Below are positions 3,771 to 36,996 of a DNA stretch of 64,000 bases, one piece after another; position 1 is the stretch's first letter; every line of letters starts with the position of its first letter. Both the position numbers and the translations under genes were made by a program. This DNA comes from Rhina ancylostomus. Lineage: Eukaryota. The notes under the pieces were generated by a model. The model did no database searches, was not told the DNA's origin, and saw only the letters and a program-made list of their open reading frames with translations. The DNA lies in assembly GCA_030265395.1 (NCBI GenBank), contig JARFYF010000104.1, forward strand, positions 27,235,429 through 27,299,428, read 5' to 3'.

Positions 3771-5559
3771 GAGATTCCCATTAGAATTCCCATTAGAGAT
3801 CACTCTTCAAAGTCCATTGGTGCTTGTAGTCTACCTACCATGTCAAACATAGGAACTTGTGCATCCCATGATACACCGAGTCTGATAATCTCTTCAGATT
3901 CTTCACTGCCTCTTCTGACGATGGACTGGATGTGGATTACTCAACTGAGGCCATCACCAATCCTCAAGTAAGACCACAAGTGTCATTCTTGGCAAGGAAT
4001 GCAAGTGTCAGAGGTCTTGCATAGCTTCTGTGTAATGAGTGTCACTAAAAACTCCAGGATGGAATTACCTATCTTATATCACAGTATCCAGGGCACTTTG
4101 CTGTGAAGACAACAGAGCCTGCGGCTAACGTTGTCACATGCTACTACGGTCCTGCCCGTTTTAACTGTGCCCCATTTCTGTCAATTCTTCATCTCTCTAT
4201 AAATCTTTGAACATCTGTGCATGTGTCCATTAAGATATCTGATGAGAAACAATTATCATAATGCTCTTGTCACTGTGAGTTCATGTTAGATATCCAAGAG
4301 TTTAATAATACTGATAATATTTTGCTACAACCTATGTTAACTTTGTTAAAAATTCACATTTGTGTGAATATGTTTAAAGTATTTGTTCCTCTGGCGACCC
4401 ATGTGGTAAAGCATTCTGAAGCACAGAGGGAAAAGGTTCACCAACACAGGTAAGAACAATACTCTCTGATTCACTTTTATTTACTGCCCATGCTCTCATA
4501 CTGCCCAATTCCACCATTCAAACCACTGCTTCAAAGAGTAAAGGTGCTATGACGGTTATAACTTTCTCCAGACACAAGCTTTTAAATTATACAAAAGACT
4601 TGGAGTCAGAGATCAGTCTCAAAGAGTCCAAATCCCTCACATTCAGTTAGAGACAATACCAACAAATGGTTATAGATAACATTAACATAGTAAATTGGAT
4701 GTGATCCTTTTATTAGAAGGTAGTTTCAAAAAGAACTTGGTTGAAAGGGGCAAATGATCAGGACAAAAGAAAGTATTTTCCCCAATGTCTATGTAGAATG
4801 CAAGTGCAATATTGACTCCCTCATGTAAGAAGGAACAGTGTCGAACATCTGCTCAGTACCACAAACTGTTCAACCAACATTGTGAACTGCAATGTTGAAG
4901 TAAAATCTTGGTTTACTTAATTATTTTTCAGATTAGAGAAGAATTTAATCAACTTTATTCTTAGGACGTATTTCATATCCAATTATTCATCTATCTCCTG
5001 AGATTAAATCAAGAGGACCTTATTACTTAGTTCCCCTCTTCTTCCTCCACCATTGTCACCAACNNNNNNNNNNGTGTACGGCTGCTGGTGCAGAACAGAT
5101 TTGAGTGGATTAGCCCTGGATAACTACTACATCTGTTGTTGTAGCATTACGAGCTAGCTTCCAGATGAACTAAATACTGCCAGTGGCCAACACCAGTTTC
5201 AAAGATCAAAACTGGGTGATTTCCATAATTCCAGCTTAATTCCCTTTTAATTTAGCAGACAGTACTGTATTACAACAACTTTAAATGCTTTTGGCAAGAT
5301 GGAAATTGAGACAAATTGAGCATAAACCTGTTACACAAAAATATCCTGACTAAAGCGTGGCCAGATGTACATCACAGAATGCATAGTGGATATAGATCTC
5401 ATTTATGGAAATGGAAATCCTATCTGTTTGGACAGGTTAATAAACAGCTGTCCAGTTCAGCCCCCGGGGAGAACAAAACACTGGCAGTTATTTTAGGCAA
5501 GTCAGTTTAGCTATTAATATCTTAAACATTAATAATCTTTCCTTAGTAGTTAATGTGGT

Positions 5560-5727
5560 TGATTGATGGATGATATCATTGACCATGTAGCAGCCATAAT
5601 ACTTGGACAATGATTGATAGTTGATGCTCTATTAGCTTACATGGTTTCATCTCTGCGTAATGATTGACATATGATGCTCTGTGCTCCAGTTGTAATTTAC
5701 ATAGTAAATAGTGATTGACATTCGATG
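5560..5727 (+). promoter_or_regulatory. Phased cluster of four TGATTGAY (PBX-HOX / PBX-MEIS type) motifs; candidate enhancer
   Basis: TGATTGAT at 5560 and 5611, TGATTGAC at 5661 and 5712 (spacing 51, 50, 51), each followed by nnnYGAT; spacers unrelated. Function is inference. Confidence 0.35.
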
Positions 5728-5964
5728 ACACAGACCTTGCCCACTTTATTCCAGCCCTGTATAATGACTTAAATAATGAAACAATATCCCTTTTGTTGGA
5801 TGAAAAGGGACAGATTTAAAAATCAAAGCTGTGTTATCTCTCCCATTATATCTTTGTTTATCTCAGATTTGTGGCCACGTTTCTAGCTACAGCCTGTTAA
5901 CACCAAAGAAAAAGTCTGTTTTTATGCTTGGCATTTAAATCAACAGCAAAGGTTCATTTCTGAA

Positions 5965-6170
5965 GCTAAAGACAAACAGGCTGGGGGAGCTCAGCAGGTC
6001 AAGCAGCATTTGTGGTGGCAAAAAGATCTTGATTGGTCCTGCTGCATGGCCTCAACCTGAAATGTTGACATCCCTTTCCCCCCACAGATGCTGCCTGACC
6101 CGCTAAGCTCCTCCAGCAGTTTGTTTATTTGCTCCAGATTCCAGCATCTGCTGTCTCTTGTGTCTCCATG
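5965..6170 (+). mobile_element. Penelope-like element terminal fragment with a short inverted left part
   Basis: CAGATGCTGCCTGACCCGCTAAGCTCCTCCAGCAG...TTCCAGCATCTGC, with the inverse GGAGCTCAGCAGGTCAAGCAGCAT at 5986-6009; decayed hammerhead 6036-6069; possible degenerate TSD TTCATTT(C/TT)TGAA at 5953-5964 and 6172-6184. Confidence 0.7.
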
Positions 6171-6289
6171 ATTCATTTTTTGAAATCTGGTGCATCATAG
6201 GAAGAAAAATATATAGCAGCAAAAAAAAGAACTATACTTACTTCCTGAAGTCATTGATACAATTCAATCAAATATTTTTGCAGCCCTGA

Positions 6290-7130
6290 AGATACCTGTT
6301 CAGCCCATTGAGATTGTGCTGGCACCTTGAAAAGAGACTTGTGCCAATCCCCTGGTCTTCCCTTGGGATCGAATTGTTTCCCATTTCAAGGATAAAGAAT
6401 TGTCCCCTTTGGAAATTTACCAATGAATTTGATTCCACTATTCTTTTAGACAATGGCAATCCAGGCCATAACATCTTGTGGCGTCAATATATTTTAATCT
6501 CATCTTTCTTCTGGTACATTTACAGAGGTGAAAGTAAGTCTGTACAGGCCAATGTATCAGGAAGAAAGTGTCTGACACAATCAATACAGATGGGTTAAAT
6601 CAACTACGTTGGTCATGTGACCATCCCAGTAAGGATCTTCAGTTGCTTTCACACCAATTATTTTGCTGATTATCTTAAATTTGTTTCTTTTACTCTCTCT
6701 GCACCAAACCAAATCATCGGCATCCTTCCTAAAGTAAGACGCCCAAAACCAGATCCAGTTCTCCAGCTGACACCTGACCAGTGATTCATAAAGGTTTAAA
6801 ATAACTTACTTGTTTTTATCTTTCAGCATTAAAGTCAGGGATCCATGACTTTCACAATCTTTTCAAATTGTTTTGACACCTTGAAGATCTGGGTGCTTCT
6901 CACTGTTCTTTCATTGTAATATTTAGCTTACATTCCATCTTCTTTGCAAAATGTGTCACTTCACACGTCTCTGGATTAAATTTCATCTGCTAAAAGCCAT
7001 CTCATCGTTCTGCCTGTGCCTTCCTGAAGTCCTTTTCCCTGTTCACCATATTTGCCAGCTTTGTACCATCTTCAGGTTTTGAAGTTCTTTTATCCAAATC
7101 CAGGTCAATAAATTAATGACAAAAAGATCA
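6290..7130 (-). mobile_element. Old degenerate CR1 LINE fragments
   Basis: CCCAAAACCAGATCCAGTTCTCCAGCTG and ACTTCACACGTCTCTGGATTAAATTTCATCTGC resemble reversed CR1 LE.CVQFW and QMKFNP.KCEV coding motifs. Confidence 0.5.
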
Positions 7131-7919
7131 ATATATCTTCTTGTAATCTGACAACAACAGTTCACCTGTACTCCTGCTTTGTCTCTTAGTCAATGTCAAA
7201 AATGGATTGTCCCTTTAACCCACTGGGGTTTACTATAACAGTCCAATTTATTATACAATACATAACACAACAATACCCTTATTAACCCTTCTGTTACTCA
7301 TTCACAAACCTCTTGTCGTGATACATTGTTGCTATCAGTAATTGTAAAAATTGTGCATTGATTCCAAAGCCCACATTGGTACCACTCATTTTGCAAAGAC
7401 AGTGGAAGCTACTGGTCATCTAGTTTTCTATGGTTTTTAATGCCCTCCCTCCCTCCTCCATAGAAATGTGTTTAGTCTTGACGTGTACTGGTATCTCCTC
7501 GAAGGTCTCCCATTGTTCCCTGGTTGTTTTACCTGCCAGATTTTGTTCCTGATCTAACAGAGTGTTCCTCCATCCCTTGCAAGGGAAGGACAAGGAGTCT
7601 GCATCTCTGGATTAGGACCAGTAGCCAGTACAAGACAGGTGAGTAAGCCCAGGTGGTGTTCATTGGACAGACAGTGTAAACCCTTGCATAATAATATTTT
7701 CCAGGCTGATATTTAGGCCCTTAAATCATCGTCATGGGAGTGGGTGGATGAGGAGTGGCTAAAGATGGGGGCAAGATCCCTGGCCCAATACCAGAAACAG
7801 TTTCTTCATTATTCTGGTTTCTATAAAACCTAAGTCTGTCACCAGGATCTGGGAGCCCACATGCTCGTGGGTAGGTCGGTGACAAAGGTCCCAAACTCAT
7901 GCATTCTTGCTCACTTATT

Positions 7920-9192
7920 TTGACACAGAAGGAGGCCATTTGGTCCACTGTGTCCATGGAGGTTCCCAGCAGTGCAACCCCATCACCCCCATNNNNNNNN
8001 NNNNNNNNNNNNNNNNNNNNNNNNNNNNNNNNNNNNNNNNNNNNNNNNNNNNNNNNNNNNNNNNNNNNNNNNNNNNNNNNNNNNNNNNNNNNNNNNNNNN
8101 NNNNNNNNNNNNNNNNNNNNNNNNNNNNNNNNNNNNNNNNNNNNNNNNNNNNNNNNNNNNNNNNNNNNNNNNNNNNNNNNNNNNNNNNNNNNNNNNNNNN
8201 NNNNNNNNNNNNNNNNNNNNNNNNNNNNNNNNNNNNNNNNNNNNNNNNNNNNNNNNNNNNNNNNNNNNNNNNNNNNNNNNNNNNNNNNNNNNNNNNNNNN
8301 NNNNNNNNNNNNNNNNNNNNNNNNNNNNNNNNNNNNNNNNNNNNNNNNNNNNNNNNNNNNNNNNNNNNNNNNNNNNNNNNNNNNNNNNNNNNNNNNNNNN
8401 NNNNNNNNNNNNNNNNNNNNNNNNNNNNNNNNNNNNNNNNNNNNNNNNNNNNNNNNNNNNNNNNNNNNNNNNNNNNNNNNNNNNNNNNNNNNNNNNNNNN
8501 NNNNNNNNNNNNNNNNNNNNNNNNNNNNNNNNNNNNNNNNNNNNNNNNNNNNNNNNNNNNNNNNNNNNNNNNNNNNNNNNNNNNNNNNNNNNNNNNNNNN
8601 NNNNNNNNNNNNNNNNNNNNNNNNNNNNNNNNNNNNNNNNNNNNNNNNNNNNNNNNNNNNNNNNNNNNNNNNNNNNNNNNNNNNNNNNNNNNNNNNNNNN
8701 NNNNNNNNNNNNNNNNNNNNNNNNNNNNNNNNNNNNNNNNNNNNNNNNNNNNNNNNNNNNNNNNNNNNNNNNNNNNNNNNNNNNNNNNNNNNNNNNNNNN
8801 NNNNNNNNNNNNNNNNNNNNNNNNNNNNNNNNNNNNNNNNNNNNNNNNNNNNNNNNNNNNNNNNNNNNNNNNNNATCATCATCACCCCATCACCCCATCA
8901 CCGTCACCCCATCACCCACCACGCCCCCCCCATCTCATCACTCCTCTTCTTATTTCCCCTTTTCACATGTCTATCAACTGTCCTTTATTTATTTTGCCAC
9001 TACCCACTCCCAGGGTAAGTTGCAGCAGGCAGTCAACCTCCCATCACATCTTTTCAGATGAGGGAGTAAACCTTGGGGAGCCTCACATGGTCAGGGAGAG
9101 AATGTGCAGGCTCCATGCAGACAGAGCCTGAGGTCAGCATGGAACAAAGGGCACTGGAGCTCTGTGGCAGCAGCACTAACTGCTGTGCCACA
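7920..9192 (-). mobile_element. V-SINE (HE1-like) with internal (CCCCATCA)n tandem expansion across a gap
   Basis: V-domain CTCACATGGTCAGGGAGAGAATGTGCAGGCTCCATGCAGACAG and reversed tRNA head ending GCTGTGCCAC; CR1-like tail at 7920-7960; CCCCATCA repeats on both gap flanks. Confidence 0.7.
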
Positions 9193-9663
9193 CAGCTACT
9201 TTATCACTTCAGCAGGGACATTCCTCCTGCATGAATGTCTAGACCATTGTTTCTGAAGATCTGCCACTCCACCTCCTGCTATCCTGCATCCTGAAGTCAT
9301 TCATTTCCTCAACAATAACTCCCCAAACACCCTCCTAACTCAGCTTTACTACCCAGACCACTCCTTGCACTTATTTCATGTGCTGATACAGTTGTATCCT
9401 CAACTATTAAATGTATTAATGGATCAAACAGCAAAACTGTTGCTTAATAGGCTGGTTCATTCACTTCTGTCCCCAGAAGCCTGCTGCTCTTAGCCTATCA
9501 TAAGGCAAATGGTAAATTTGCGAGTGGGGGTGGTGTTTATCTTAACATTCCAAAAAGTGATAANNNNNNNNNNNNNNNNNNNNNNNNNNNNNNNNNNNNN
9601 NNNNNNNNNNNNNNNNNNNNNNNNNNNNNNNNNNNNNNNNNNNNNNNNNNNNNNNNNNNNNNN

Positions 9664-9723
9664 CGGCCTTCAGCAAGATCGGGGGGATCCTGGCCAACGA
9701 GCTGTCGGTGGATGAAGCTGCCC
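9664..9723 (+). CDS. IQGAP: Orphan IQGAP-family coding exon fragment (5' part lost in gap); paralog not resolved
   Basis: Frame from 9666 reads AFSKIGGILANELSVDEAA plus C, then donor GTGAGT at 9724-9729; identical to the recalled IQGAP post-CH-domain motif MPAFSKIGGILANELSVDEAA(L). Confidence 0.85.
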
Positions 9724-10029
9724 GTGAGTGATGCCAGCCCTGGGTTTGACAGCGTGGACGAGTTGGGCCGTGTAACTCTGTGACCAATGTACTGATCCTC
9801 TCTGATGGACCCTGGGGAGGTGGGGGGTAACTGACCCCAGGTTCCGGTCCCCGGGCAGGATGACATGGGGAGAGAATAGCGGCTTTGCTATCCGACCATC
9901 GGGGAGGCTCCGACTCTGCAACTTGGCACAGCGAGAGCTCACAACACTAACCTATGTTTACCGAGCTGCTGCTTTATGTAAAACCATCCCAAGGCTCCTC
10001 ATTGGGAGTGTAAATCAGACAAAACCGGT

Positions 10030-10235
10030 GGAGACATCCAAGGTGGCAGATGCTGGAATCTGGAGCAACAAACAAACTGCAGGAGGAACTCAGCGGGTCA
10101 GTCAGCATCTGTGGGGGGAGAGGAATTCCTGAGACGGTACGTCAGGCCTGAGAGGGGGGAGAGAGCTGGTGTGAAGAAGGGAGGGGAGCAGTGAGACGGG
10201 TGGGTAGGTGACAAGTTGAGGGGAAGTGTAGGGGT
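10030..10235 (-). mobile_element. Penelope-like element 3' terminal fragment
   Basis: CAGATGCTGGAATCTGGAGCAACAAACAAACTGCAGGAGGAACTCAGCGGGTCAG, same family as 5965 and 52232. Confidence 0.7.
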
Positions 10236-10237
10236 TG

Positions 10238-10416
10238 AAGTCAAGGTGAGTTTATTGATATCTGCACAGGTCCATGTGTGCACAGGTGCAATGAAGAACA
10301 CAGCAGCATTACAGGCACACGGCATCAGATTAGCAGCATTCACAAAATATAAATTATACACAATTTTTACAAGGAAGAACATGATTAGAGCATTTTAGTG
10401 CAAAGTGATCAAAGTG
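10238..10416 (-). mobile_element. Rex/Babar-like LINE 3' tail
   Basis: AAGTCAAGGTGAGTTTATTG...GTGCAATGAA...CAGCATTACAGGCAC; related copies at 17462 and 59125, the latter attached to a Rex ORF remnant. Confidence 0.65.
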
Positions 10417-10864
10417 AAGGGGGGTCACAGGGGTTGCAGAGTAGGAGGGGGTTACAGAAGGGAGGTGGTACAGTAAGTCCTGTTTGCCTGGATGGCCTAT
10501 TGGTTTGGAGCATCTGAGGCCAGTGATAGCAGATGACAAGGTAACTGTTTCTGCAGTCACATTATTTGCAGGCGTCTTAATGGTTCCTGGAGTGTTATTC
10601 ACTGGAGGACATAAAATACATTTAATTTGACAATATATTTCTGTCCTTTGTCCATGGGTTAACTACCATAAAGCTGTAAAATGCTCTCACTTCTTGTTCG
10701 ATGATTTGTGGCCATGTTTAAAAAAAGTCTCCATGGCCACAATTCCAGTAAATGCAGAGAATGTGATTTATACAGACAAAACTTCTGTGTTCAAGCCTTC
10801 AGTATAGTATACTAATATTTATCTGTTAACAATGTTGCTAAGTAAAAACAATTAGCAATAAATA

Positions 10865-10975
10865 TTTTGGAGATGTAAGTTTGTGCAAATTGGCTGCTGC
10901 AGTTCCTGTATTACATCTTCAGGAAATACTTAATCAGCTGTAGAACCTTTTGGAATATCCTCGGGTCATGGGAGA
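10865..10975 (+). mobile_element. Deu-domain SINE (SacSINE1-like) 3' fragment
   Basis: TTGTGCAAATTGGCTGCTGCAGTTCCTGTATTACA...TACTTAATCAGCTGTAGAACCTTTTGG. Confidence 0.55.
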
Positions 10976-12224
10976 GACCAAATTCATCCCTTTTATTTTC
11001 TTGAATAAACATAAATAATCATTGCATTTTTGGAAGCCAATTTCCAAGTTACCATCACTTCCCACTTTGAACGAGCACGTGGAGGAAAGATGAACTTTGA
11101 GCTCAGTTGTGAGATTTTTAGGGTTGAACATTCTTCCAACATTCATTACTTTCACCTTTGACATCTACCCTGAAGAGAGAAGGAATCATGAGAAAACAAT
11201 CCTGTCCTATCTCAGTACTGCCGTTCTAATTAATTGTTGGAAATAACCATTACTAAATTAAGTCACCAATTAAATGATTGCTATAACACAGCTTGCTGGT
11301 GTAAACCTGTTACAATGTTCCCAATATTAAAACTACTCAAAATTACTTCCTCCATTGTGAGCTTCTTTTCGATGTCCAGATATCTGGTGGTACTTCATTT
11401 CACAAGCTTTTTTTCCCCATTTCTTTCATCCTTTCCCGATAGACTACAGGAACTAGATCTGGTTTATATAAAGCAGTTTGATTACAAAATAGACATTACA
11501 GTATAAGCCAAATAATTGAATTTATTACTGCTGATGAGACATGGGATTTTATATTTTTTATGGGATTCTATATTTTTTTTCAACATAAACCATGTTAATT
11601 TTCATGTATGACAAAGCAATATAGTTATTCCTATCTTATTCTATTAGAAATGACAGAATGTAATAATTAATTAAATTTTGTACTGGAGTTTACAGCAAAT
11701 ATTCATCGTCAGTCTCAAATCAATTGCGTTGAAGATGAAACATTGATTTTAGAATGTAGAAGCAGAAGAAGGAACTAATATCCACTGTGTATCCATTAAA
11801 GAATTAAATTAGACTAATAGCTGTAATATTTCACTAATGTGAACAAATTCCGGAAACGTTTAGATGGTTGTGAAATAACATTGATCAATTTGAAGCAAGA
11901 GGTTTTCTTATACTCTATTCTTAAATTGCTTGCTATCATTCCACAGTTTGTGTCAATCAGGAGGTGAGGTATTTTACCCCAGTTGGCAGAATTGCAAGGG
12001 TCAACTTTCAACAAAGAATGTTTCTCTGCATTGACTGTAAACTAATGAATCCACTGCTTGCAATGGTGATGTAAACATCCTCAGTAACCATTTTCAAAAG
12101 GGAATTAAATGTATTTGAAATGAGACCATCTACAACATTATGTGAGAAAGAGTAGGAGAGTGGACTGATGGATAACTCTTTCACCAAACTATCAGAACAG
12201 CAACAACAGAAGAGTATTCTTTAA

Positions 12225-12460
12225 TCACACCTTAATGCAACAAAATACTTCTAGGTGCTTCACACAAACATTGAAAAGTAAGATTTGAAACACAAAAAGA
12301 CAGGTATGGTTCGATGATAAAAAGTTTGGACGAAGAGGCCAGTTATAAAGAACACCTCAAAGGCACTGAGATACTGAAATGATAGACTTTTTGAGGAAAT
12401 TCAATGGTTTACGGTTTCTCTGCTGAAGATAGAGATGCCAATGAGTGAGCAAAAGAACAG
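12225..12460 (-). mobile_element. L2 LINE 3' end, degenerate
   Basis: CACACCTTAATGCAACAAAATACTTCTAGGTGCTTCAC...GATAAAAAGTTTGGACGAAGAGG resembles a reversed L2 tail. Confidence 0.45.
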
Positions 12461-12470
12461 AATGACCAAC

Positions 12471-12600
12471 TGGCACAGTGATGGAGCTGGTAGAGCCTCT
12501 GCCTCATAGCTCTTGAGACCTGGGTTCAAACCTGACCTTGGGTGCTGTCTGTGTAGAGTTTACGCGTTCTCCCTGTAACCGCATGGGTTTCCCACAGGTG
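12471..12600 (+). mobile_element. V-SINE 5' half
   Basis: tRNA-like head with box A TGGAGCTGGTAG and box B GGTTCAAACC, then V-domain GTCTGTGTAGAGTTTACGCGTTCTCCCTGTAACCGCATGGGTTTCC. Confidence 0.8.
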
Positions 12601-12704
12601 ATGCTCTGGCCAGGACTGGATGGATGAGTATAGAGATATCCTAACCCAGTCTCACTCAGCTGGAAGATAATGGAGAAACAATGAATGAGGATGTTTCTTA
12701 GATT

Positions 12705-13165
12705 TATTCACTTGTTGGATCTAGAAAGGTCAGTATTTATTGCCCATCCTTAATTGCCCTTGATCTGAGTGCTTGTTTGGCCATCTCAGAGAGCACTGGG
12801 AAGTCCCACACAGGTGGGTCTAGAGTTATGTAATTCACCTCCTTTTCAGTTCCAACTAAGGGGTTTCAGCCTGCAACATTAGCTCTGTTCCTCTTCCCAA
12901 AGATGCTGCTTGATCTGCTGAGCATTTTGATTTTAAATTTCCAATATTTTTGATTTTTATTTAGCTCCTCCCTCAGCAGACCTCCTCCCCTGAAGGACAT
13001 TAGTGAACCAGATGACTTTATACATTAATCCAGTAATTTTGTGGTCATCATTACTAATGACTATTTAAAAAAAAGTCCAGATTATTTACTGACTTTCAAT
13101 TCCACAGCTGGTGTGATGGGATTTGAACTCAGATTACTGGATTACTTGTCCCTAATCACTGTGAC
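12705..13165 (-). mobile_element. SINE with LINE-derived tail, interrupted by a decayed Penelope-like fragment (~12840-12960)
   Basis: GTATTTATTGCCCATCCTTAATTGCCCTTGA tail and GATGGGATTTGAACTC reversed box B; second copy at 30570-30915. Confidence 0.55.
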
Positions 13166-13404
13166 CACATCAAGGGTCACAGATCACACCCTAGTGACTC
13201 ACAGAGTTAACCCTTTGCTTCAAGGTGTGCAAGTTCTTGAAGCACTAAGGAGATGGAAATGTTGCAGGGGTAATCTGAGAAATCTGGCATATGTGTAAGA
13301 AGTGATCAGAGTCAGAGATTTATTGTGGCTGTTACTCAAATCATGTAGATTTCTGGGTCAATGTAACTTTTTAGCACACTTTATTCGGTCAGTGGCATAT
13401 TCCC

Positions 13405-13966
13405 TCATAGAACCATGGAGTAATACAGCATGTAAACAGACCCTTCAGCCCAACTGGTCCATGCTGAACAAGATTCCTATCTAAGGTCGTCCCATTTGCT
13501 TGCATTTGTCCTGTATTCCTCTATACCTTTCCTATCCATGTACTTATCCAAATGTCTTTTAAATTATTGATATTTTATATACCTTAGCTATTTACTCTGG
13601 CAGCTCATTCCATTTACCTATCACCTTTTGTGTGAAGAAGTTGCCCCTCAGGTTCCCATGAAATCTTTCACCTCTCACCTTAAACCTATACCTTCTTTAG
13701 ATTTTAGTTCCTTTTCCACAGGAAAAAGACTGTGTGCATTCATCCTATCTGTGCCCTTCATGATTTTATGCACCTCTTTAAGGTCACCCTTCAGTATCCT
13801 ACATTCCAAGGAATAAAGACCTAGCCTGCCCAACCTCTCCCTATAACTCAGACCCTCGAGTCCTGCCAACATTCTCATAAATCTTCTTTGCACTCTTTCC
13901 AGTTTAATGATGTCTTTCCTATAACAGGGTGACCAAAACTGCACAGAATACACCAGGTGCGGCCTC
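13405..13966 (-). mobile_element. CR1 LINE 3' end
   Basis: ORF 13675..13953(-) YSVQFWSPCYRKDIIKLERVQRRFMRMLAGLEGLSYRERLGRLGLYSLE. Confidence 0.92.
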
Positions 13967-16194
13967 TAAGAGGAAGCACATACGCGATCCGATCCTGGCT
14001 TCAATCTATTATGGAGACTTTCCTGGAAGGTTCAGTCCTTCATGTGAACCATTGGCTGCAGTGTGGGAAGCAAAATGGATTCCTGACAATAAAGAAATGT
14101 TACACAAACTCCCCGGACATGTGATTTTTAACTCTGAGAACTCTATTTTCTCATGATCACATAACAAGCCTTATGGTTAGCCCAAGATTCTCCATGCCAT
14201 TTATGCTCTGCGTTCTCAGTGGGAGCCCAGAGGCCACATGAATACAATCTACTTTCTTCCTCACTCACTGAAAGCTTGCTGTCCTCTGAGTTCTTCATTC
14301 CCAGTCACCCTGATTGTCCATGATTCCTTGAGCAGAGACAGTCCCTTTTCTTTGCATGGAGGATATCAGTGACCTGTAGTGAGTTGAGATCTGTGGACTG
14401 TGGAACAGAATGTTGCTACCTTTGGGAATGATCTGAAGACTGAGAAATTTATGGTGAGAGAAATGTTGGCCTCTCCAGAGATGGGTCGACAGCTGTAGAT
14501 CTACCCAGAGAAGGCTGCAGAGCACTATCACCATTTCCAAGACCAATATTGTCTCTGGGCACACTGGCCTTCTCAGCACTGGACAGAGGAATTTGGCTCC
14601 TAAACTTTTGGGGATATCATCTGCAGACATGAGCACTTTTTCCACTCCTTGGGGTCCCAAGTTATCTCCACCCTGCCCCGATAGCTCCAGTGGTGCAGTT
14701 CATCCAGTGGGATCACCACAGAACTATCCATGGCAAAGAGTGACAAGCAACTGGAGAGATGACAATGCACCTCACCCGAAATCAATGTAGTAAATAAGTT
14801 CTGCCTCCACAGTGAACAGGCAGACTCCAGAATGGCTCTTTAATCCAGGCAGTGACAATGGCTAGAGGGTCTGTAAAAGTAGTTCCCTCTCAATGGTTAA
14901 TGATCTTTCTCAAGCAATGGAACTTAGGCCAAAGATCAAAATGAGCAGAGCAGGACACATAATGCCACTTTGGGTATACCCTGATACACCAGTGCACTTT
15001 GCAACCAGAATTGAGGGAATTAGTTTAAAGAATTGCACAATTCTTACAATTTTCAATTCCATCTGTATCACTTAAACATTTCTAGATATTAATCCTCTAT
15101 CATGATGCAAACAGTGAAGGTTTAAAATTCAGGTTAAACCAAACAATAATAATCTCATATACCAAGAATTATAGCCCAATGCAAAGCACATCTGGATCCC
15201 ATCATTCTCCACTGCTGAAGTCAAGGCTAGTGGGCAGCCAAATGTTCTGGCAGCTAGTGTCCAGCGCATCCCACACTTTGCCTTTCACTGTACATGTGTG
15301 GAACACCAAGGTGTGGTGAGGTAAAGGACAATGTGATTCCACTCAGTCTCTGCAAGGCCTTATCCCAATTAAAACCTCACCTTGTTCCTACAAAACATTG
15401 GTGGTGCAATTTGTAGTTCTTTTGAACAGGAATAGAATAGTAGAGAATGGGTTCTGAATTGGAAGACTGTAACCTTAATTTGGAATTCTGAGGATGTAGG
15501 AGCAAATTCTTTAAATCAAAAATTAGGCTTTGAACTGTTTTCTTTTAACTGTTGTTTCAAATATTCATTTAACCTTCGTGCTGTGATTAAATTGCAATGT
15601 GCAATTTTCAATGAGGCAGTTTTCTGATGTTTTCGATTCATGAAGTAAACTATGAAGAGTCATACTGCATGACATTCCTAATCAACCAGCCTGTGACATT
15701 ATTATCAAGTGGATAAATTGCAGTTGATTCCAAGAATAATCTAAGTCTAATATATACATATATTAGAAACAAATTGTATGAGCTCTTTGGAGCTGTAACA
15801 TTGTTGACATACATTCCAGAACAATATGACACAGAGCACATCTGTTGATAAAGCACTGAGAGACTTTATTCTCTGAGGTGCTTCACCTGACATCACATGA
15901 AATATTTATAGTCTATTCACAGTGAAAAAAAGTTCCCCAGTGGAAAAGAGTTTGTGTTGTGGAGACAATTGAGACTGTGACAAGATAAGTGATTGGCAGA
16001 AGGTGGATAGGCAAAGGAATTAAGACATTTCAATGGGGTTTAAAGTGAAACCATTCACTTCATTTGATCAGAGCATCACTGGAATCATAATGGACATGCT
16101 TCCTGTTATAAGTTTAAACATTTTCATTAGGATTTTTCATAGCTATGTGCCATTATTAAGTTCTTTATTGATCATCCACAGAGAACCTTTTAGG

Positions 16195-16310
16195 GTACCT
16201 CAGTGGTAGCATTACTAACTCATGTATCAGAAAGTCATGGGTCCCAGGTTGACTTAATGACCACTTAGCAGTGAAGAGGGAATGCTGTTTCGTTGAGGTG
16301 CTGAGATCAA
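16195..16310 (+). mobile_element. Deu-domain SINE 5' fragment
   Basis: CTCAGTGGTAGCATT...TCAGAAAGTCATGGG head and GAGGGAATGCTG...GAGGTGCT segment. Confidence 0.45.
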
Positions 16311-16462
16311 GTTTCCAATTCTGACACAAACCACACCAGCTTAATAACTATCATTTCTTCCCTTAAGTATCCCCCAAACAACAATTCAATATTGCCAAAT
16401 ACAATGTAAGCAAACAGCCTGTGAAATCAGCAAGCATATTAAAACAGGATTTTTTAAAATAA

Positions 16463-16742
16463 TGTGGCGACTCGCTGGTATTGAACCGGCTCCCAAGATC
16501 ACGAGCGTTGTCGGAGGCCCCGACCCAAGATGGCACAAGGCCCTCCTTCTTCTACATTGTTGGGCTAGGAAAGCCGGCGCGCAGGAAGGTCAGGTGACCT
16601 GCACGTGATGTCAGCGCGGGTCTGAAGTGCGGGACGAGTTTTAGTATTAAAGGTGCACTGTGCCCCTGTTGTTCATTCGACTTTTGACTCAAAGCAACCG
16701 ACTCCTGGTCTTTATTCAATAGTAGTGTAGCTAGCCACTACA
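16463..16742. mobile_element. Solo LTR (Gypsy- or ERV-type), 280 bp
   Basis: Begins TGTGGCG, ends CACTACA, flanked by the 4-bp direct repeat ATAA (16459-16462 and 16743-16746); GC- and CpG-rich against AT-rich flanks. Confidence 0.8.
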
Positions 16743-17461
16743 ATAAACTATTTTGTGAAAAATATTACATGATAGATTTAAGAATGATAATATGATAATG
16801 TTCGATTCTTACAGTAAAAAAATATTTATCACATTTTAAAAAGCATCATAAACCATTATGTTAACCCACTAACTTAGAGTAACCCAATTTCAAGTGACTG
16901 AAAATGACTATTTTTTAAATAAGTCTTCTCATTCCTTAAAAAAAACAAACCCTTTCAAAATCTGTCATTAATGTCCACATGCACAAAAGGTCCAAACTTT
17001 TTGGTACATTATAGAAGTTCTACAAATGAATGTACTTATTGGAAACATCTGATAGTGATTAATTCACCCTGGTGCTATGGTCAATTTTGACGGCTTATAA
17101 TGCAAGATTTTTATAATTAGTGTGAAAGATTGAGAACTCAATTTGCCCTGACTCCAATTTTTGTTAAAATTCCACAGTTTTTAGCACTGATTATTCCTTA
17201 TTGGTAAAGTTCCATGTGAACAATCAAAAAAAACTATTCAAAGAAAAGCATGGTCATTGAGTTTCCTGGATTAATATTTAACTTTTACCAATATTGTAAA
17301 AAAATTTCAACAGTAATTTTTAAATATCTCCACATTTGTCAGATTTTCCTCCACAACAATTGCTTTTTACCCATAGTAAATTCATTTCAGAAATAGACTT
17401 TTTATCCTTGAAGCACTTTGAAACAGCCTGGAGTCACGAAAGTGGTGTATAAATGCAATTT

Positions 17462-17925
17462 CAAAGTCAAGGTTGAGTTTATTGACATATGCACAAGTAC
17501 ATGTATGTATATGTATGCAATGTAAAACTTACTTGTAGCAACATCACAGGCACATAACATCAGAGACATAACATTCACAAGAAAAACATAAACATAAATT
17601 ATGCAAAATTATATAAGAAAGAGCGCAATTAGAACAAAATAATGTCCATTGTAGTCCATTCGGTGGCATAGTAGCGTAGCAGTTAGTGTAACACTATTAC
17701 AGCACCAGTGATCAGGGTTCAATACCTGCCACTGTCTATAAGGAGTTTGTACGTTCTCCCCATGACTGTGTGGGTTTCCTCTGGATGCTCCGGTCTCCTC
17801 CCACATCCCAAAGACTTACAGGTTAGTAGATTAACATGGGTGTAACTGAGCAGTGTGGGCTCGTTAGGCCAGAAGGTCCTGTACCATGCTGTATAAATTA
17901 AATTTTAAAGTTTTAGTGCAATGAT
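17462..17925 (-). mobile_element. Rex/Babar-like 3' tail split by a V-SINE
   Basis: Matches the 10238 copy up to ~17650 and resumes at TTTTAGTGCAA (~17911). Confidence 0.6.
17661..17905 (+). mobile_element. V-SINE, near full length
   Basis: Head GGCATAGTAGCGTAGCAGTTAG...GGGTTCAATACC; V-domain GGAGTTTGTACGTTCTCCCCATGACTGTGTGGGTTTCCTC; CR1-like tail GGCCAGAAGGTCCTG. Confidence 0.85.
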
Positions 17926-19784
17926 TTAGTGAAAAGTCCTTTACTTTTTGACTGAAAAATCACTGCTAGAAACATTGACTGTCACGGAGGACAGCAAAAT
18001 GTGTTGACTGCTTCTGGTGGTGTTGTTGAGTCTAATAATGAGCAAAGATACAATAATCACAGTTACTTGGATGCCAGTAATGAGGAAGACCATGGTCTAG
18101 ACATAGGAAAGCTGATCAATAAGCCATTGAGGACAATCTTGTGTCTGGGTGAAAGTAGGCTGCATCTCCATGGATGTGTTGTTTGGGGTCAACAGACTAA
18201 TAGGGTGCCCAAAGTTAGTAAAAGGGATTTCAAAGCCTTCAGCAGTAATTGTGGGAAGTGAGGAATAGAGCTGGCAACAGAACAAATGTCAACATGTGGA
18301 AAGGGTATGTGCCCCCAAGATGTTCAGTGATTTTATCAGCTTGACTGTAGATGCCAGCATGATAAACAAGGCAACAGTACTATCGCCCATCCTACATTAT
18401 CAGCCCAGGACACTTACAGTTGGGGTACTTGTGGCAGACTCTGTCCTTCCAAAACGGGTTTACTTGCCTATTGATGGAGATGTAGTATAGTTATGTGGCC
18501 TCAATTAAGTTTGAAAGGTGCATTTCCATAATCTCACTGTGATGGANNNNNNNNNNNNNNNNNNNNNNNNNNNNNNNNNNNNNNNNNNNNNNNNNNNNNN
18601 NNNNNNNNNNNNNNNNNNNNNNNNNNNNNNNNNNNNNNNNNNNNNNGATGCCAAACTCTTACCCAAGAGAATAATTCTGTGCAAAATCATTGGTATGCAC
18701 TATTACTTGCTTTCCTGTAGCCATAGGTCAACAGTGAACATCTAATGTAAAATACTTGATATCATTTGACATAATTTATCTCCTGCTACATAACAATGGT
18801 GACATTATATTTATGTTATGGAATCCTTCTTGACACAAGCATAAAATGGGGAAAGATTCATCAGAACTGATAAAAAAGGAATGCAAAAGAAGTAAAAACC
18901 TTTACATTTTTATTTTGTTTTCAGCTGTTCGTATTCAGCATGCCAATTAATCCCAGAACTGGTGCCAACAGCACAAATGTATTAATAGAATGTTGTCTGA
19001 AGTATTTATTTAAAACTCAGATAGCTAAGATAAAACAATACTTTGATGGAACTTTGGAAGATTTTTTTTGTTCCATCAGGACAGTAATTAATTCACACCT
19101 TCCCCCCTGTCTTCCATTTAATTATTGGTATGAGTGGGATGGGAAACTATTATGATGAGACTTGAAATACAATCTAATTGCATGGTCCCACCCTTTAAGT
19201 GTTTCACAGCAAATCAATCTTTTTCTCTGTTAAATAGATCAAAGTATTTTGAATTGCTTTGATTATTAGCAGTTCCACATCCAAAAGAATAATGAAATTT
19301 TGTTGATTAAAAGAGAGCAATATGTCATCAGTGTAGACTTGATGGGCTGAAGGGTCCCATTCCATGCTGTATGATCAATGACACTATGACTTTAGAACTG
19401 AGGGTTCAAAATGACTTGGCCATCATGTTTAACCATTACCCAAATCCCTAGATTAATTACTGTTGAGTAATGCCTCTTTAGATACATTTTGTTATTTACT
19501 AGTGTATGAAAGGTAAATAAATAATTTGGAATATCATTCTAATATATGCAATATATAGTAATCAATACGTGTTGTGCCATAGCATTACTCAGTGGTGATC
19601 TCATTGGAAGTCTATTAATTCTATTAACAATCAGGGGTGGGGGGAATTGAGCAGGAATGAATTCTACCGGTTATGTTAACCATGAATGAGATACGATGGC
19701 CTCACCAAAGAGGAGCGAGGTAGATCAGAATATGAACTAGTGAGTGCTGAGCTGTGAAATATGATGTTATGTACAATCTGCATT

Positions 19785-24202: not shown

Positions 24203-24329
24203 ATGGAGCGGCGGCGGAGCGCGGCCGCCCTCCTCCCGGTGGCGCTTCTCTGCCGGACCTACCCCTACTTCTGCTGCCTGGTCTGCTGGATGCTGGAGGG
24301 GTGCAGCGGGGCCGCGGGACACAACCAAG
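24203..24329 (+). CDS. EPHA5: EphA5-like receptor coding exon 1 (signal peptide MERRRSAAALLPVALLCRTYPYFCCLVCWMLEGCSGAAGHNQ)
   Basis: Strong Kozak GAGCCATGG in the CpG island; 42 codons + 1 nt, then CAAG|GTAAGT; the phase-1 G joins TT of exon 2 to give Val of NQ-VNLLDS. Confidence 0.85.
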
Positions 24330-24553: not shown

Positions 24554-27500
24554 AGATCTCTCTGGGTACCTCACTCCAGTCGCTCTGAGACCCCCGGGAC
24601 GGATAATTGATCCTCAGACCCCGGGCCGGGCACCAGCCTCGACACCCCACCTTTCCCCCCTCTCCCCCATATTTCAGCCGAAGTATATTTAAATGCAAAT
24701 TACGCCTCCATGTAAACGCATTATATACCCACAGAACCAACACACGGTGCGACTCGTTTTACTAAATATTCAGGTGAAACCTAGGTCGATCGGTCACCTC
24801 TCCTTCCTGAACTTTTCTCCGGGCACACCCCCCTTCTCCCTGCAGCGGGGACTGTTTATCACCGTCCTCTCCCACACGAAGGGTCGCCCCTCGCCATGCC
24901 TGCCGCGGCTTTGGGGAACTGCCTTTGGGGAACTAACTTCGGAGGGCTGTCGGTCGGACCACCCGCAGGGAATGGTGTGTCGGACGGCACTCGCTGGCGG
25001 CACCGGCGTAAACAGGGGCGCAACTGGGCGAGAAGAGAATTTTACAAATAGGTTGTTACCTCAAACTTAACATGAAGCGTTATTTCATTGTGACTTGCTT
25101 TATGTCTGGAGGGAGGGGGTGTTTAAAGACAAATGGGGACGGGTTCTGGCTCCGGCGACCCGTTTCCAGCTCCCGGTAAATCCCCAGACGCCGGCAACAG
25201 CCCGTGCCTCAACATGTTCACCCATTCGGAGGCTTCGCAGTTCAAGGGAGTGTGCAGGGTGAAGACTGTTGCTCAAGGTCCGGTCTCTCTAGGATCCGAA
25301 ATACTTTTTGACCTTGATAATTGAATTTGCCATCAGTGTAAAACACGGCATTCCTTGCAAAGTTTACTGAATCGAGTCATTCTCAATGAATTATAATTCC
25401 CCTTCCAATTCTATCTGGCCGCTGGAATGATCTCCGTCAATAACAGGGGCAGTTCGGCGGCCTTAACTTTGGAACAGACGTTTGGAATGAGACGGCATTG
25501 GGGGTGGGGTGGGGGGTGGTGGTTGATATCGAGTGTTCAGTAACGGCGGAGAACGAGCTGATGGCAGTGACTGTGGTGGTGTGACCCACAGTTAATGCTT
25601 TAGTTGCACCCTAGTCTTCGTGGGCTGCGTNNNNNNNNNNNNNNNNNNNNNNNNNNNNNNNNNNNNNNNNNNNNNNNNNNNNNNNNNNNNNNNNNNNNNN
25701 NNNNNNNNNNNNNNNNNNNNNNNNNNNNNNCACCCTAGTCTTCGTGGGCTGCGTTGTCATGTTTTGCATAGGGTTCTTCTCTAGACCTGGTCTCCTTTTC
25801 AGCAAACACTCGAAACCTTGATGGAAGGCTCGCATATTTCAGTGTGGTTTTCAACGTGTATGGGTTTAAAAAAATCAAACCAAAGTGTTTTCTTAAAAGC
25901 AAAAACAAACACAGTTTTGGAAGCTTAACTGCAGCGGCCTTGTGCAGACAACGGCCAGGGGTGTCCACCGGCCGTTCGAGCACCGCAGTTTATCCGGTGG
26001 ACAACGTAATCTCAATCGGCCTTTCATTCTGCCGGTTACTAAACAATAAATCTGTTTCACTGGACTTTCACCCGCGTTTACACACTAATCACAACCCTAT
26101 AAATCATTAGGTGAAAATGATAAATTGTAAAACGAACAAATGTAAAGCTGATTCCGTAGAAAATTAAAAGTTTCAATGATCTTGTGGTCATGAGGCTTGG
26201 AACTGTAAATGGTGACATCAAGGGGGCAGAAACAAACTTGTCCTTCGGAGAAAGACCGAAAGTCGAACAATTTATCCACCGTTGTGTTTCCCTTTTAGAT
26301 ACAACTACTTGCAAATTTGGTAACCAGAATATACTTTTTTTAAATAGTCATGAGATTCACTCGACGCTTATCAGAAAAAATAAAGCTCATATTTCGGGCA
26401 TTGAATTTCATCATGTTTGAATGATTGTAGGATTGCAATGTTACAATGAAACGATTATTTCGTATCTATAAACGAGCTAAATTCGAAGCAGTTTTGATAT
26501 CACTGAAATTTCCGCGTAAAGAGCAGGTTTAAGATAAAATTACTTGTAAATTATTTTAAAATGAAATCCAACCTGTTTCCTGTTTCATATCCTCGTTTGT
26601 CTTTTCCCACTTTTCCACTTTTCGTTGTTTACGTTGCAACAGAAAGTTATTTTGATTTGTATTCCAGGGTACTCTGGATACGTGCAGCGGGTGTGAGGGA
26701 GGTAGAACCGCCACTAATTATTGGCTCAGTTAACGCTTGATCATTGCAACTGAAGTAGCGTCCGTTTGCAATCTGTGGTCAACACATCTTTTCAGAAAAT
26801 TAACCAGCGTGCCAGAATCATCACCACTGTCGGTGAAAATTAAAACCCGCGATGTTATTGAACTGGGCAAAATAAGTGAAGCTCTTATTTTGTTGTTGCC
26901 TGTTTAAAATATTTGTTGCCTCCATTTTAAATTATGATTCTTGTTTTACGAAAGAAAGCACTGTTATTAATTCGTGTTCTCTTTGGTTTTGGTATAAAGC
27001 TTAGTAGACCTTAGCAGAAACAACACACATAAGTAAACTAATTCAAAATGGGTAGCGAATAATTTACAGTATTGCGCATTCCAGGAAGAAAAAACTGGGT
27101 AATAAAAAATTAGAATATATCATTGTCGTTATGACAGCTAAACCTACAGAATGTTAAGATGACTGAAAAAATATAAAGTTGTAGGGTTGTCTCGATCACC
27201 TCTGCAGCAGGTAATGCTGATAATTGTAAAACTGTCCCTTTGAGTGTGAAATGTCCTTTACACTTTCAACCACGGCGGTTGTTTGCTTAATATCAAAAAG
27301 AACCTTACTGTTCTCGGGATGGAACATTACACCTGCTGCTGACCAGGCAGAAACATTCCAAAACAGCATCTACGGTGAACATTGAAGGCATTTCCAACAC
27401 TGAATTTGGATCCACCATGAACATTGATTATTTGATATTGAAAGTTGGGTTCGGTGGCCGAGCGCTTACGTTGCTGACATCCAGCAAGTTTTCAGCATCC

Positions 27501-36931: not shown

Positions 36932-36996
36932 TTAATTTACTGGACTCCAGAGCTGTAATGGGAGAGCTGGGGTGGATAGCCTACCCAAAGAATGGG
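36932..36996 (+). CDS. EPHA5: EphA5-like receptor coding exon 2 (start of ephrin-binding domain, (V)NLLDSRAVMGELGWIAYPKNG)
   Basis: Acceptor TTTGCTTTTACAG, 65-nt exon, donor GGG|GTAAGT; peptide closest to recalled EPHA5 [22 protein letters not shown] rather than EPHA3/4/6/7/8. Confidence 0.93.

Follow-up and report, generated by a model that had tools for sequence, protein, structure and literature searches.

The IQGAP exon fragment that stands upstream of EphA5 in the window (by which is meant the whole 64,000-nucleotide stretch of Rhina ancylostomus DNA analysed here) is the only copy of this sequence to have been found, likely belongs within a 1810-N gap of the IQGAP1 gene on scaffold C66, and seems to have been joined to the DNA upstream of EphA5 by an assembly error, a reading to which we give a probability of roughly 0.9. 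Of the two options that the initial annotation had set out, a misjoined contig is the one favoured, by the native C66 locus being gapped at this exon, by the lack of a second copy and by parallel cases on scaffolds C2 and C74; a real DNA-level duplication fares poorly, no second copy being found in the assembly or in three sequencing runs. The fragment is thus most likely not a real feature, and since no contig bridges either of its junctions or the native gap the proof is indirect.

Identity and phase of the fragment

Directly after the 100-N gap the + strand reads, in frame +3 from position 9666, AFSKIGGILANELSVDEAA, then a single C and then GTGAGT at 9724, just as first described, and G or C occupies 16 of the 19 third codon positions, in keeping with the GC-rich third positions remarked on at the outset. 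The peptide is identical to two IQGAP1 proteins at 19 of 19 residues (tblastn E 3e-5 within the window), and so the original proposal holds, that of an orphan IQGAP exon that keeps its donor and lies 14.5 kb upstream of EphA5. A degenerate pattern for the core of the peptide has two matches in 2.2 Gb and its reversed control none, and the match is therefore not due to chance. Two copies of the exon only are present in the assembly, that in the window and a paralogous one at 23.557 Mb of C104. The C104 exon is 114 nucleotides long and bounded by AG and GT, and its phase-1 end at the same point bears out the phase first given for the exon end and makes the fragment the final 60 nucleotides of its exon, which we take to be exon 7 in human numbering. 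The C104 exon matches PDB entry 2rr8 with an E value of 2.6e-12, this IQGAP1 entry including both the CH domain and the segment seen in the fragment. The likeness to IQGAP1, a scaffold protein, lies in the full residue identity and in the same exon end and phase; unlike a whole IQGAP1, 60 nucleotides of one exon are all that is present, and IQGAP1, 2 and 3 hardly differ in this segment, so that identity alone cannot name the paralogue.

The first description of about 750 nucleotides of GC-rich, intron-like DNA after the exon stands for the 304 unique nucleotides at its start and not for the remainder, 10028-10447 being mostly repeat-derived. Retention of the donor together with 304 nucleotides of intron, and the absence of the next exon, rule out a processed pseudogene, which had already been set aside on the strength of the donor. 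A search with IQGAP proteins found no further IQGAP exon within the window or the 20 kb that precede it, in agreement with the next exon not having been seen at the outset. The 5' 54 nucleotides that would complete the fragment's exon were found nowhere in the assembly, where the 5' half of the exon was located in IQGAP2 only, and the piece stands in the assembly without its acceptor.

Table 1. Features of the window around the fragment and in EphA5
Feature	Position	Strand	Remarks
Assembly gap, 100 N	9564..9663		left of the fragment; a placeholder, real length not implied by 100
Last 60 nt (3' end) of the 114-nt IQGAP exon that follows the CH domain	9664..9723	+	likely IQGAP1
Phase-1 splice donor GTGAGT	9724..9729	+	same phase in the C104 paralogue
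Following intron, likely of IQGAP1, unique 5' part	9724..10027	+	304 nt, 55.6% GC, single copy in the assembly
Repeat element	10028..10237		high-copy at about 10046-10125
Second high-copy repeat	10238..10416		40 of 5704 candidates scored, the best other copies among them being 69-88% identical
Interval with the presumed chimeric junction between IQGAP1 intron DNA and EphA5-upstream DNA	10071..10447
Coding part of EphA5 exon 1, signal-peptide-like, with a phase-1 donor	24203..24329	+
EphA5 exon 2, phase-1 acceptor	36932..36996	+

Three IQGAP genes and their gaps

Searches of the genome with RasGAP_C and with the next exon located three IQGAP loci, at 23.47-23.59 Mb of C104, 18.40-18.48 Mb of C66 and 0.58-0.69 Mb of C73. 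A cat IQGAP1 shares 72.7% identity with C66, against 63.5-63.7% with the other two loci, and a ray IQGAP3 shares 83.2% with C73, against 59.8-63.6%, the proteins nearest to C73 among the matches listed being those of ray and shark; by elimination we infer that C104 carries IQGAP2. The C104 exon shares 80% of its nucleotides with the fragment. On C66 the exon is missing between intact exons 6 and 8, at the 1810-N gap (18448302-18450111), and so a native IQGAP locus is gapped at this very exon, one of the two findings that had been named beforehand as together marking an assembly artefact, the other being a lack of reads across the junctions. C73, too, is without the exon, and three gaps of 100 N lie between its exons 6 and 8. 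The fragment together with the 509 nucleotides on its left in run X2 measures about 1.3 kb, a length that the 1810-N gap can accommodate. From neither side does any listed contig reach far enough into that gap to link it physically to the fragment. Neither edge of the C66 gap was found to overlap exactly with the fragment, nor do the two sides of the gap at 9564 overlap each other exactly.

The two loci are incomplete at other places too, with IQGAP1 on C66 lacking five and IQGAP3 on C73 lacking six coding stretches of at least 12 amino acids, each of them over an N gap, and gene models drawn from C66 and C73 in this assembly will be incomplete. The upstream edges of the two native gaps, at C66:18450112 and C73:681013, both fall on one and the same position of a young repeat tail, in which C73:597503 stops a few bases earlier, and this shared tail looks like a recurrent break point of the assembly. 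The IQGAP2 locus on C104 lies on the same scaffold as EphA5, 3.7 Mb away and on the opposite strand, and has a GC3 of 0.44 against 0.77 in IQGAP1 and 0.67 in IQGAP3.

Which IQGAP gene is the source

Despite its 3.7 Mb proximity IQGAP2 was rejected as the source, as it keeps its own exon, which is AT-rich and 80% identical. The terminal residue, the codon usage and the GC content of the intron point instead to IQGAP1 on C66 as the likely source, an assignment that draws on composition and on one residue, with C73 lacking the exon too. Completed with either downstream exon, that of C66 or that of C73, the terminal C of the fragment gives Leu. Among 120 homologues listed, this residue is Leu in 112 and Val in 8, the latter being seven proteins of cartilaginous fish and one protein that starts at that residue. 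The seven are 79-87% identical to the C73 exon, with which they were grouped by identity (their source names are IQGAP3 in three cases and IQGAP1 in four), and no cartilaginous-fish orthologue of IQGAP1 is among the proteins listed for comparison. The codon log-likelihood of the fragment is −14.8 under C66, −17.6 under C73 and −24.7 under C104. Its intron has a GC content of 55.6%, as against 55.2% for C66 and 45.1% for C73. Tiles of 304 nucleotides with at least 55.6% GC number 68 of 189 at C66, 4 of 248 at C73 and 0 of 357 at C104, and one of the 65 from the window's first 23 kb is as rich, possibly the fragment itself.

That the same artefact drew instead on IQGAP3 at C73, an alternative within the artefact reading and not an addition to it, has only a slim chance of being right. 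C73 does lack the exon, with its three gaps between exons 6 and 8, and the C joined to the start of its exon 8 also gives an open frame. However Leu would then stand where all seven of the closest cartilaginous-fish proteins show Val, six of these seven have Ser in place of the fragment's Ala, the codon usage of the fragment is some 17-fold likelier under C66, and an intron of 55.6% GC sits poorly with the value for C73.

Sequencing runs and the position of the junction

Contigs of four of twelve sequencing runs, one per organism (X1, X2, X3 and X9), were aligned to the window and to the C66 gap. X1 shows three differences over the roughly 4.8 kb of its unique contigs listed and so is of the same species as the assembly; it may be the very sample from which the assembly was made, and it offers no independent support. 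In the unique bin 9820-9924 there is one contig per run in X1, X2 and X3, the summed depth being that of one contig, and X9 scarcely covers the bin. X1 has a depth of 4.6 over the fragment, where 11 other contigs from both loci range from 3.5 to 7.7 (mean 5.5); the depth is 6.3 against 11.5 in X3 and 7.7 against 9.9 in X9, and in X2 it reaches 12.4, roughly twice the 5.75 ± 1.8 of six other contigs, which speaks against the favoured reading. These comparisons omitted contigs that lie on repeats with many differences, and are weak because contig depth is not copy number. The word share of X1 is 0.68, where its four listed contigs alone give 0.67-0.69 and the presence of 10041-10464 would give 0.94, but it carries no weight as X1 has holes elsewhere too.

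Divergence of the fragment from its relatives is nearer to that of the C66 intron than to that of the pooled window flanks. For X2 it is 5.0% in the fragment, 4.2% at C66 and 2.4% in the pooled flanks (Fisher p 0.008), a difference that is not seen when the left flank is taken by itself (p 0.43), and for X3 the values are 13.6%, 9.7% and 5.0% (Fisher p 3e-7).

To the left of the fragment, a 912-nucleotide contig of X2 spans 9666-10068 and extends 509 nucleotides leftward without meeting 8875-9563, and the left-flank contigs run past 9563 for 221 (X2), 252 (X3) and 108 (X9) nucleotides without meeting the exon. Neither this X2 contig nor any bridge was found at the C66 gap among the listed contigs of the four runs. 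To the right, X1 and X2 show the exon running on unbroken into 9724-10027, and run contigs with exon and intron enter the repeat at 10028-10237 and end at 10068-10070. From the EphA5 side, contigs align from 10448 in X3 (with 33 further nucleotides unlike the window) and from 10459 in X9 (with 86), which together with the ends of the exon contigs places the junction within 10071-10447. No bridge over this interval is seen among the listed contigs of the four runs, which break at repeats, and a search for other copies found no near-identical second copy of 10120-10245 or of 10400-10560. Beyond the repeats, 10460-18546 has 38.8% GC, similar to the first 8 kb of the window, and it is to 10448-18546 that the fragment is joined without Ns.

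How the join might have come about can be sketched from these limits. Sequence upstream of EphA5 would have been extended leftwards into the repeat, the extension would have left the repeat through a copy of it in the IQGAP1 intron, and would then have continued into the exon and halted there, leaving the 100-N placeholder. Both this assembly step and the exact position of the junction are what we infer, and in the animal the piece would be an internal IQGAP1 exon unconnected to EphA5.

Parallel stranded IQGAP exons

A search with the full IQGAP1 protein, being a stricter first look, gives a lower bound on the count of stranded exons, and found at least two more of them, on C2 and C74. At C2:81003438-81003650 on the − strand an intact IQGAP3 exon, with AG and GT and 83% identity to the ray protein, lies within a 97-Mb scaffold, and it is missing from C73 at a 3399-N gap. 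The C2 host DNA enters a repeat tail of which the final 46 nucleotides are identical to the native C73 gap edge, and none of eight other copies of this tail within 593 kb is identical. After the join follow 1714 nucleotides of IQGAP3 intron, exon and intron and then a 100-N gap, beyond which the host repeat resumes about 85 nucleotides past the point of the switch. The window mirrors this arrangement, with a join in a repeat on one side and 100 N on the other.

At C74:77834066-77834198 (+) an intact IQGAP exon lies between gaps of 3639 N and 100 N. Its codon log-likelihood, −44.5 under IQGAP2 against −51.4 and −58.6 for the others, favours an IQGAP2-like origin on codon composition, with C66 and C73 lacking the homologous exon too. 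C104 lacks it over gaps of 100, 2041 and 10 N, and no exact overlap was found between it and these three native gaps. Each of the three IQGAP genes therefore has one exon on a foreign scaffold that is missing at a native gap.

Alternative explanations

A real and very recent DNA-level copy upstream of EphA5, made by template-switching repair at shared repeats and with the identical copies then collapsed in the assembly, is improbable though it has several observations on its side. No N separates the fragment from the EphA5-side DNA, collapse would account equally well for the native gap and for the edge overlap, the depth in X2 is roughly twofold, and animals offer documented cases of gap-filling capture within transposons (PMC8277862). 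Such a copy would be a dead fragment, its native gap left by the collapse. However X1 depth is 4.6 and not the 8-11 that two copies would give, three independent and recent single-exon copies would be needed in three of three IQGAP genes, and the exon's 5' half, native sequence that ought to be unique, is likewise not found in the assembly. More doubtful still is the wider proposition that the stranded exons are all real, such that in this lineage of cartilaginous fish template-switch repair between young repeat copies inserts gene pieces with their introns at new loci, often enough for each of the three IQGAP genes to have a recent copy elsewhere, and the in-frame IQGAP1 donor would give rise to an EphA5 isoform devoid of a signal peptide.

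Least probable of all is an older duplication shared with relatives, or the remnant of a fourth IQGAP gene, possibly used as an in-frame upstream exon of EphA5. The donor is intact and in phase 1, as the initial annotation had noted in pairing it with the phase-1 acceptor of EphA5 exon 2, and the C with the first two bases of that exon preserves the EphA5 frame; the relatives moreover carry the exon and its intron. The frame match is nonetheless a coincidence of about one in three, and the predicted splice from 9723 to EphA5 exon 2 would drop the EphA5 signal-peptide exon. Copies dating back to the divergence of these relatives would by now differ and form two contigs, and a separate parent copy at 80% likeness would also have aligned, so that the one contig seen per run makes such a duplication unlikely. 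The EphA5-side and left-flank contigs of the relatives go on into sequence unlike the fragment, and there is no other IQGAP exon nearby. By titles and the starts of abstracts, the literature found holds no IQGAP1-EPHA5 fusion, and that on IQGAP duplication in cartilaginous fish likewise none.

Comparison with known systems

Kim et al. 2022 (PMC9516821) describe a 'fragmented' class of false gene loss in draft vertebrate assemblies, and the assembly error favoured here resembles it in having an exon on another scaffold, a GC-rich and repeat-rich context and an N gap at the native site. That class takes in exons on any other scaffold, whereas the present exon lies in a 101-Mb scaffold to which one of its sides is joined without Ns, and this requires a chimeric join. 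The errors reported there were also confirmed against long-read assemblies, in contrast to the present case, which is drawn from a draft assembly and run contigs. Rhie et al. 2021 (PMC8081667) give roughly 5,000 to 8,000 mis-joins, chimeric ones included, for short-read hummingbird assemblies, of which many gaps fall in repeat or GC-rich regions. The present assembly is similarly gappy, two stretches of 200 kb containing 71,781 and 22,344 N; the likeness to those short-read assemblies is one of gaps, and this genome may derive from other data and another assembler.

A further comparison is with the single-copy Pack-TIRs attributed to transposition-independent gap filling (PMC8277862), which share with the fragment an intron-containing gene piece beside repeats, a distant source locus and possible chimeric splicing to a neighbour. 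Pack-TIRs as described there keep an intact parent copy and sit in a TIR element, whereas here no parent copy was found, and an enclosing element is not visible, the left side of the fragment being an N gap.

With an assembly error as the preferred reading, the fragment is most likely of no biological import, being an ordinary part of IQGAP1, and IQGAP1 has not lost this exon. The case is also a warning for this genome: as stranded exons occur in all three IQGAP genes, other orphan exons of the assembly, exons in repeats and apparent gene captures need their native gaps checked first. Were the rare alternative true, repeats would be guiding the copying of exons in a vertebrate at an unusually high rate.

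EphA5 and minor observations

The neighbouring gene is EphA5 as first annotated, with PDB 4et7 as its best match (E 1.5e-7). A Pfam scan of 29 of the 105 stop-to-stop frames of at least 90 amino acids gave no matches, and no more EphA5 exons are seen in 36997-64000 among these 29 long frames; EphA5 intron 2 may be longer than 27 kb. The 100-N gap at 25631-25730 of the window is not a real gap, as its flanks overlap by 24 nucleotides, and several other 100-N gaps in C66 and C73 have flank overlaps of 16-126 nucleotides.
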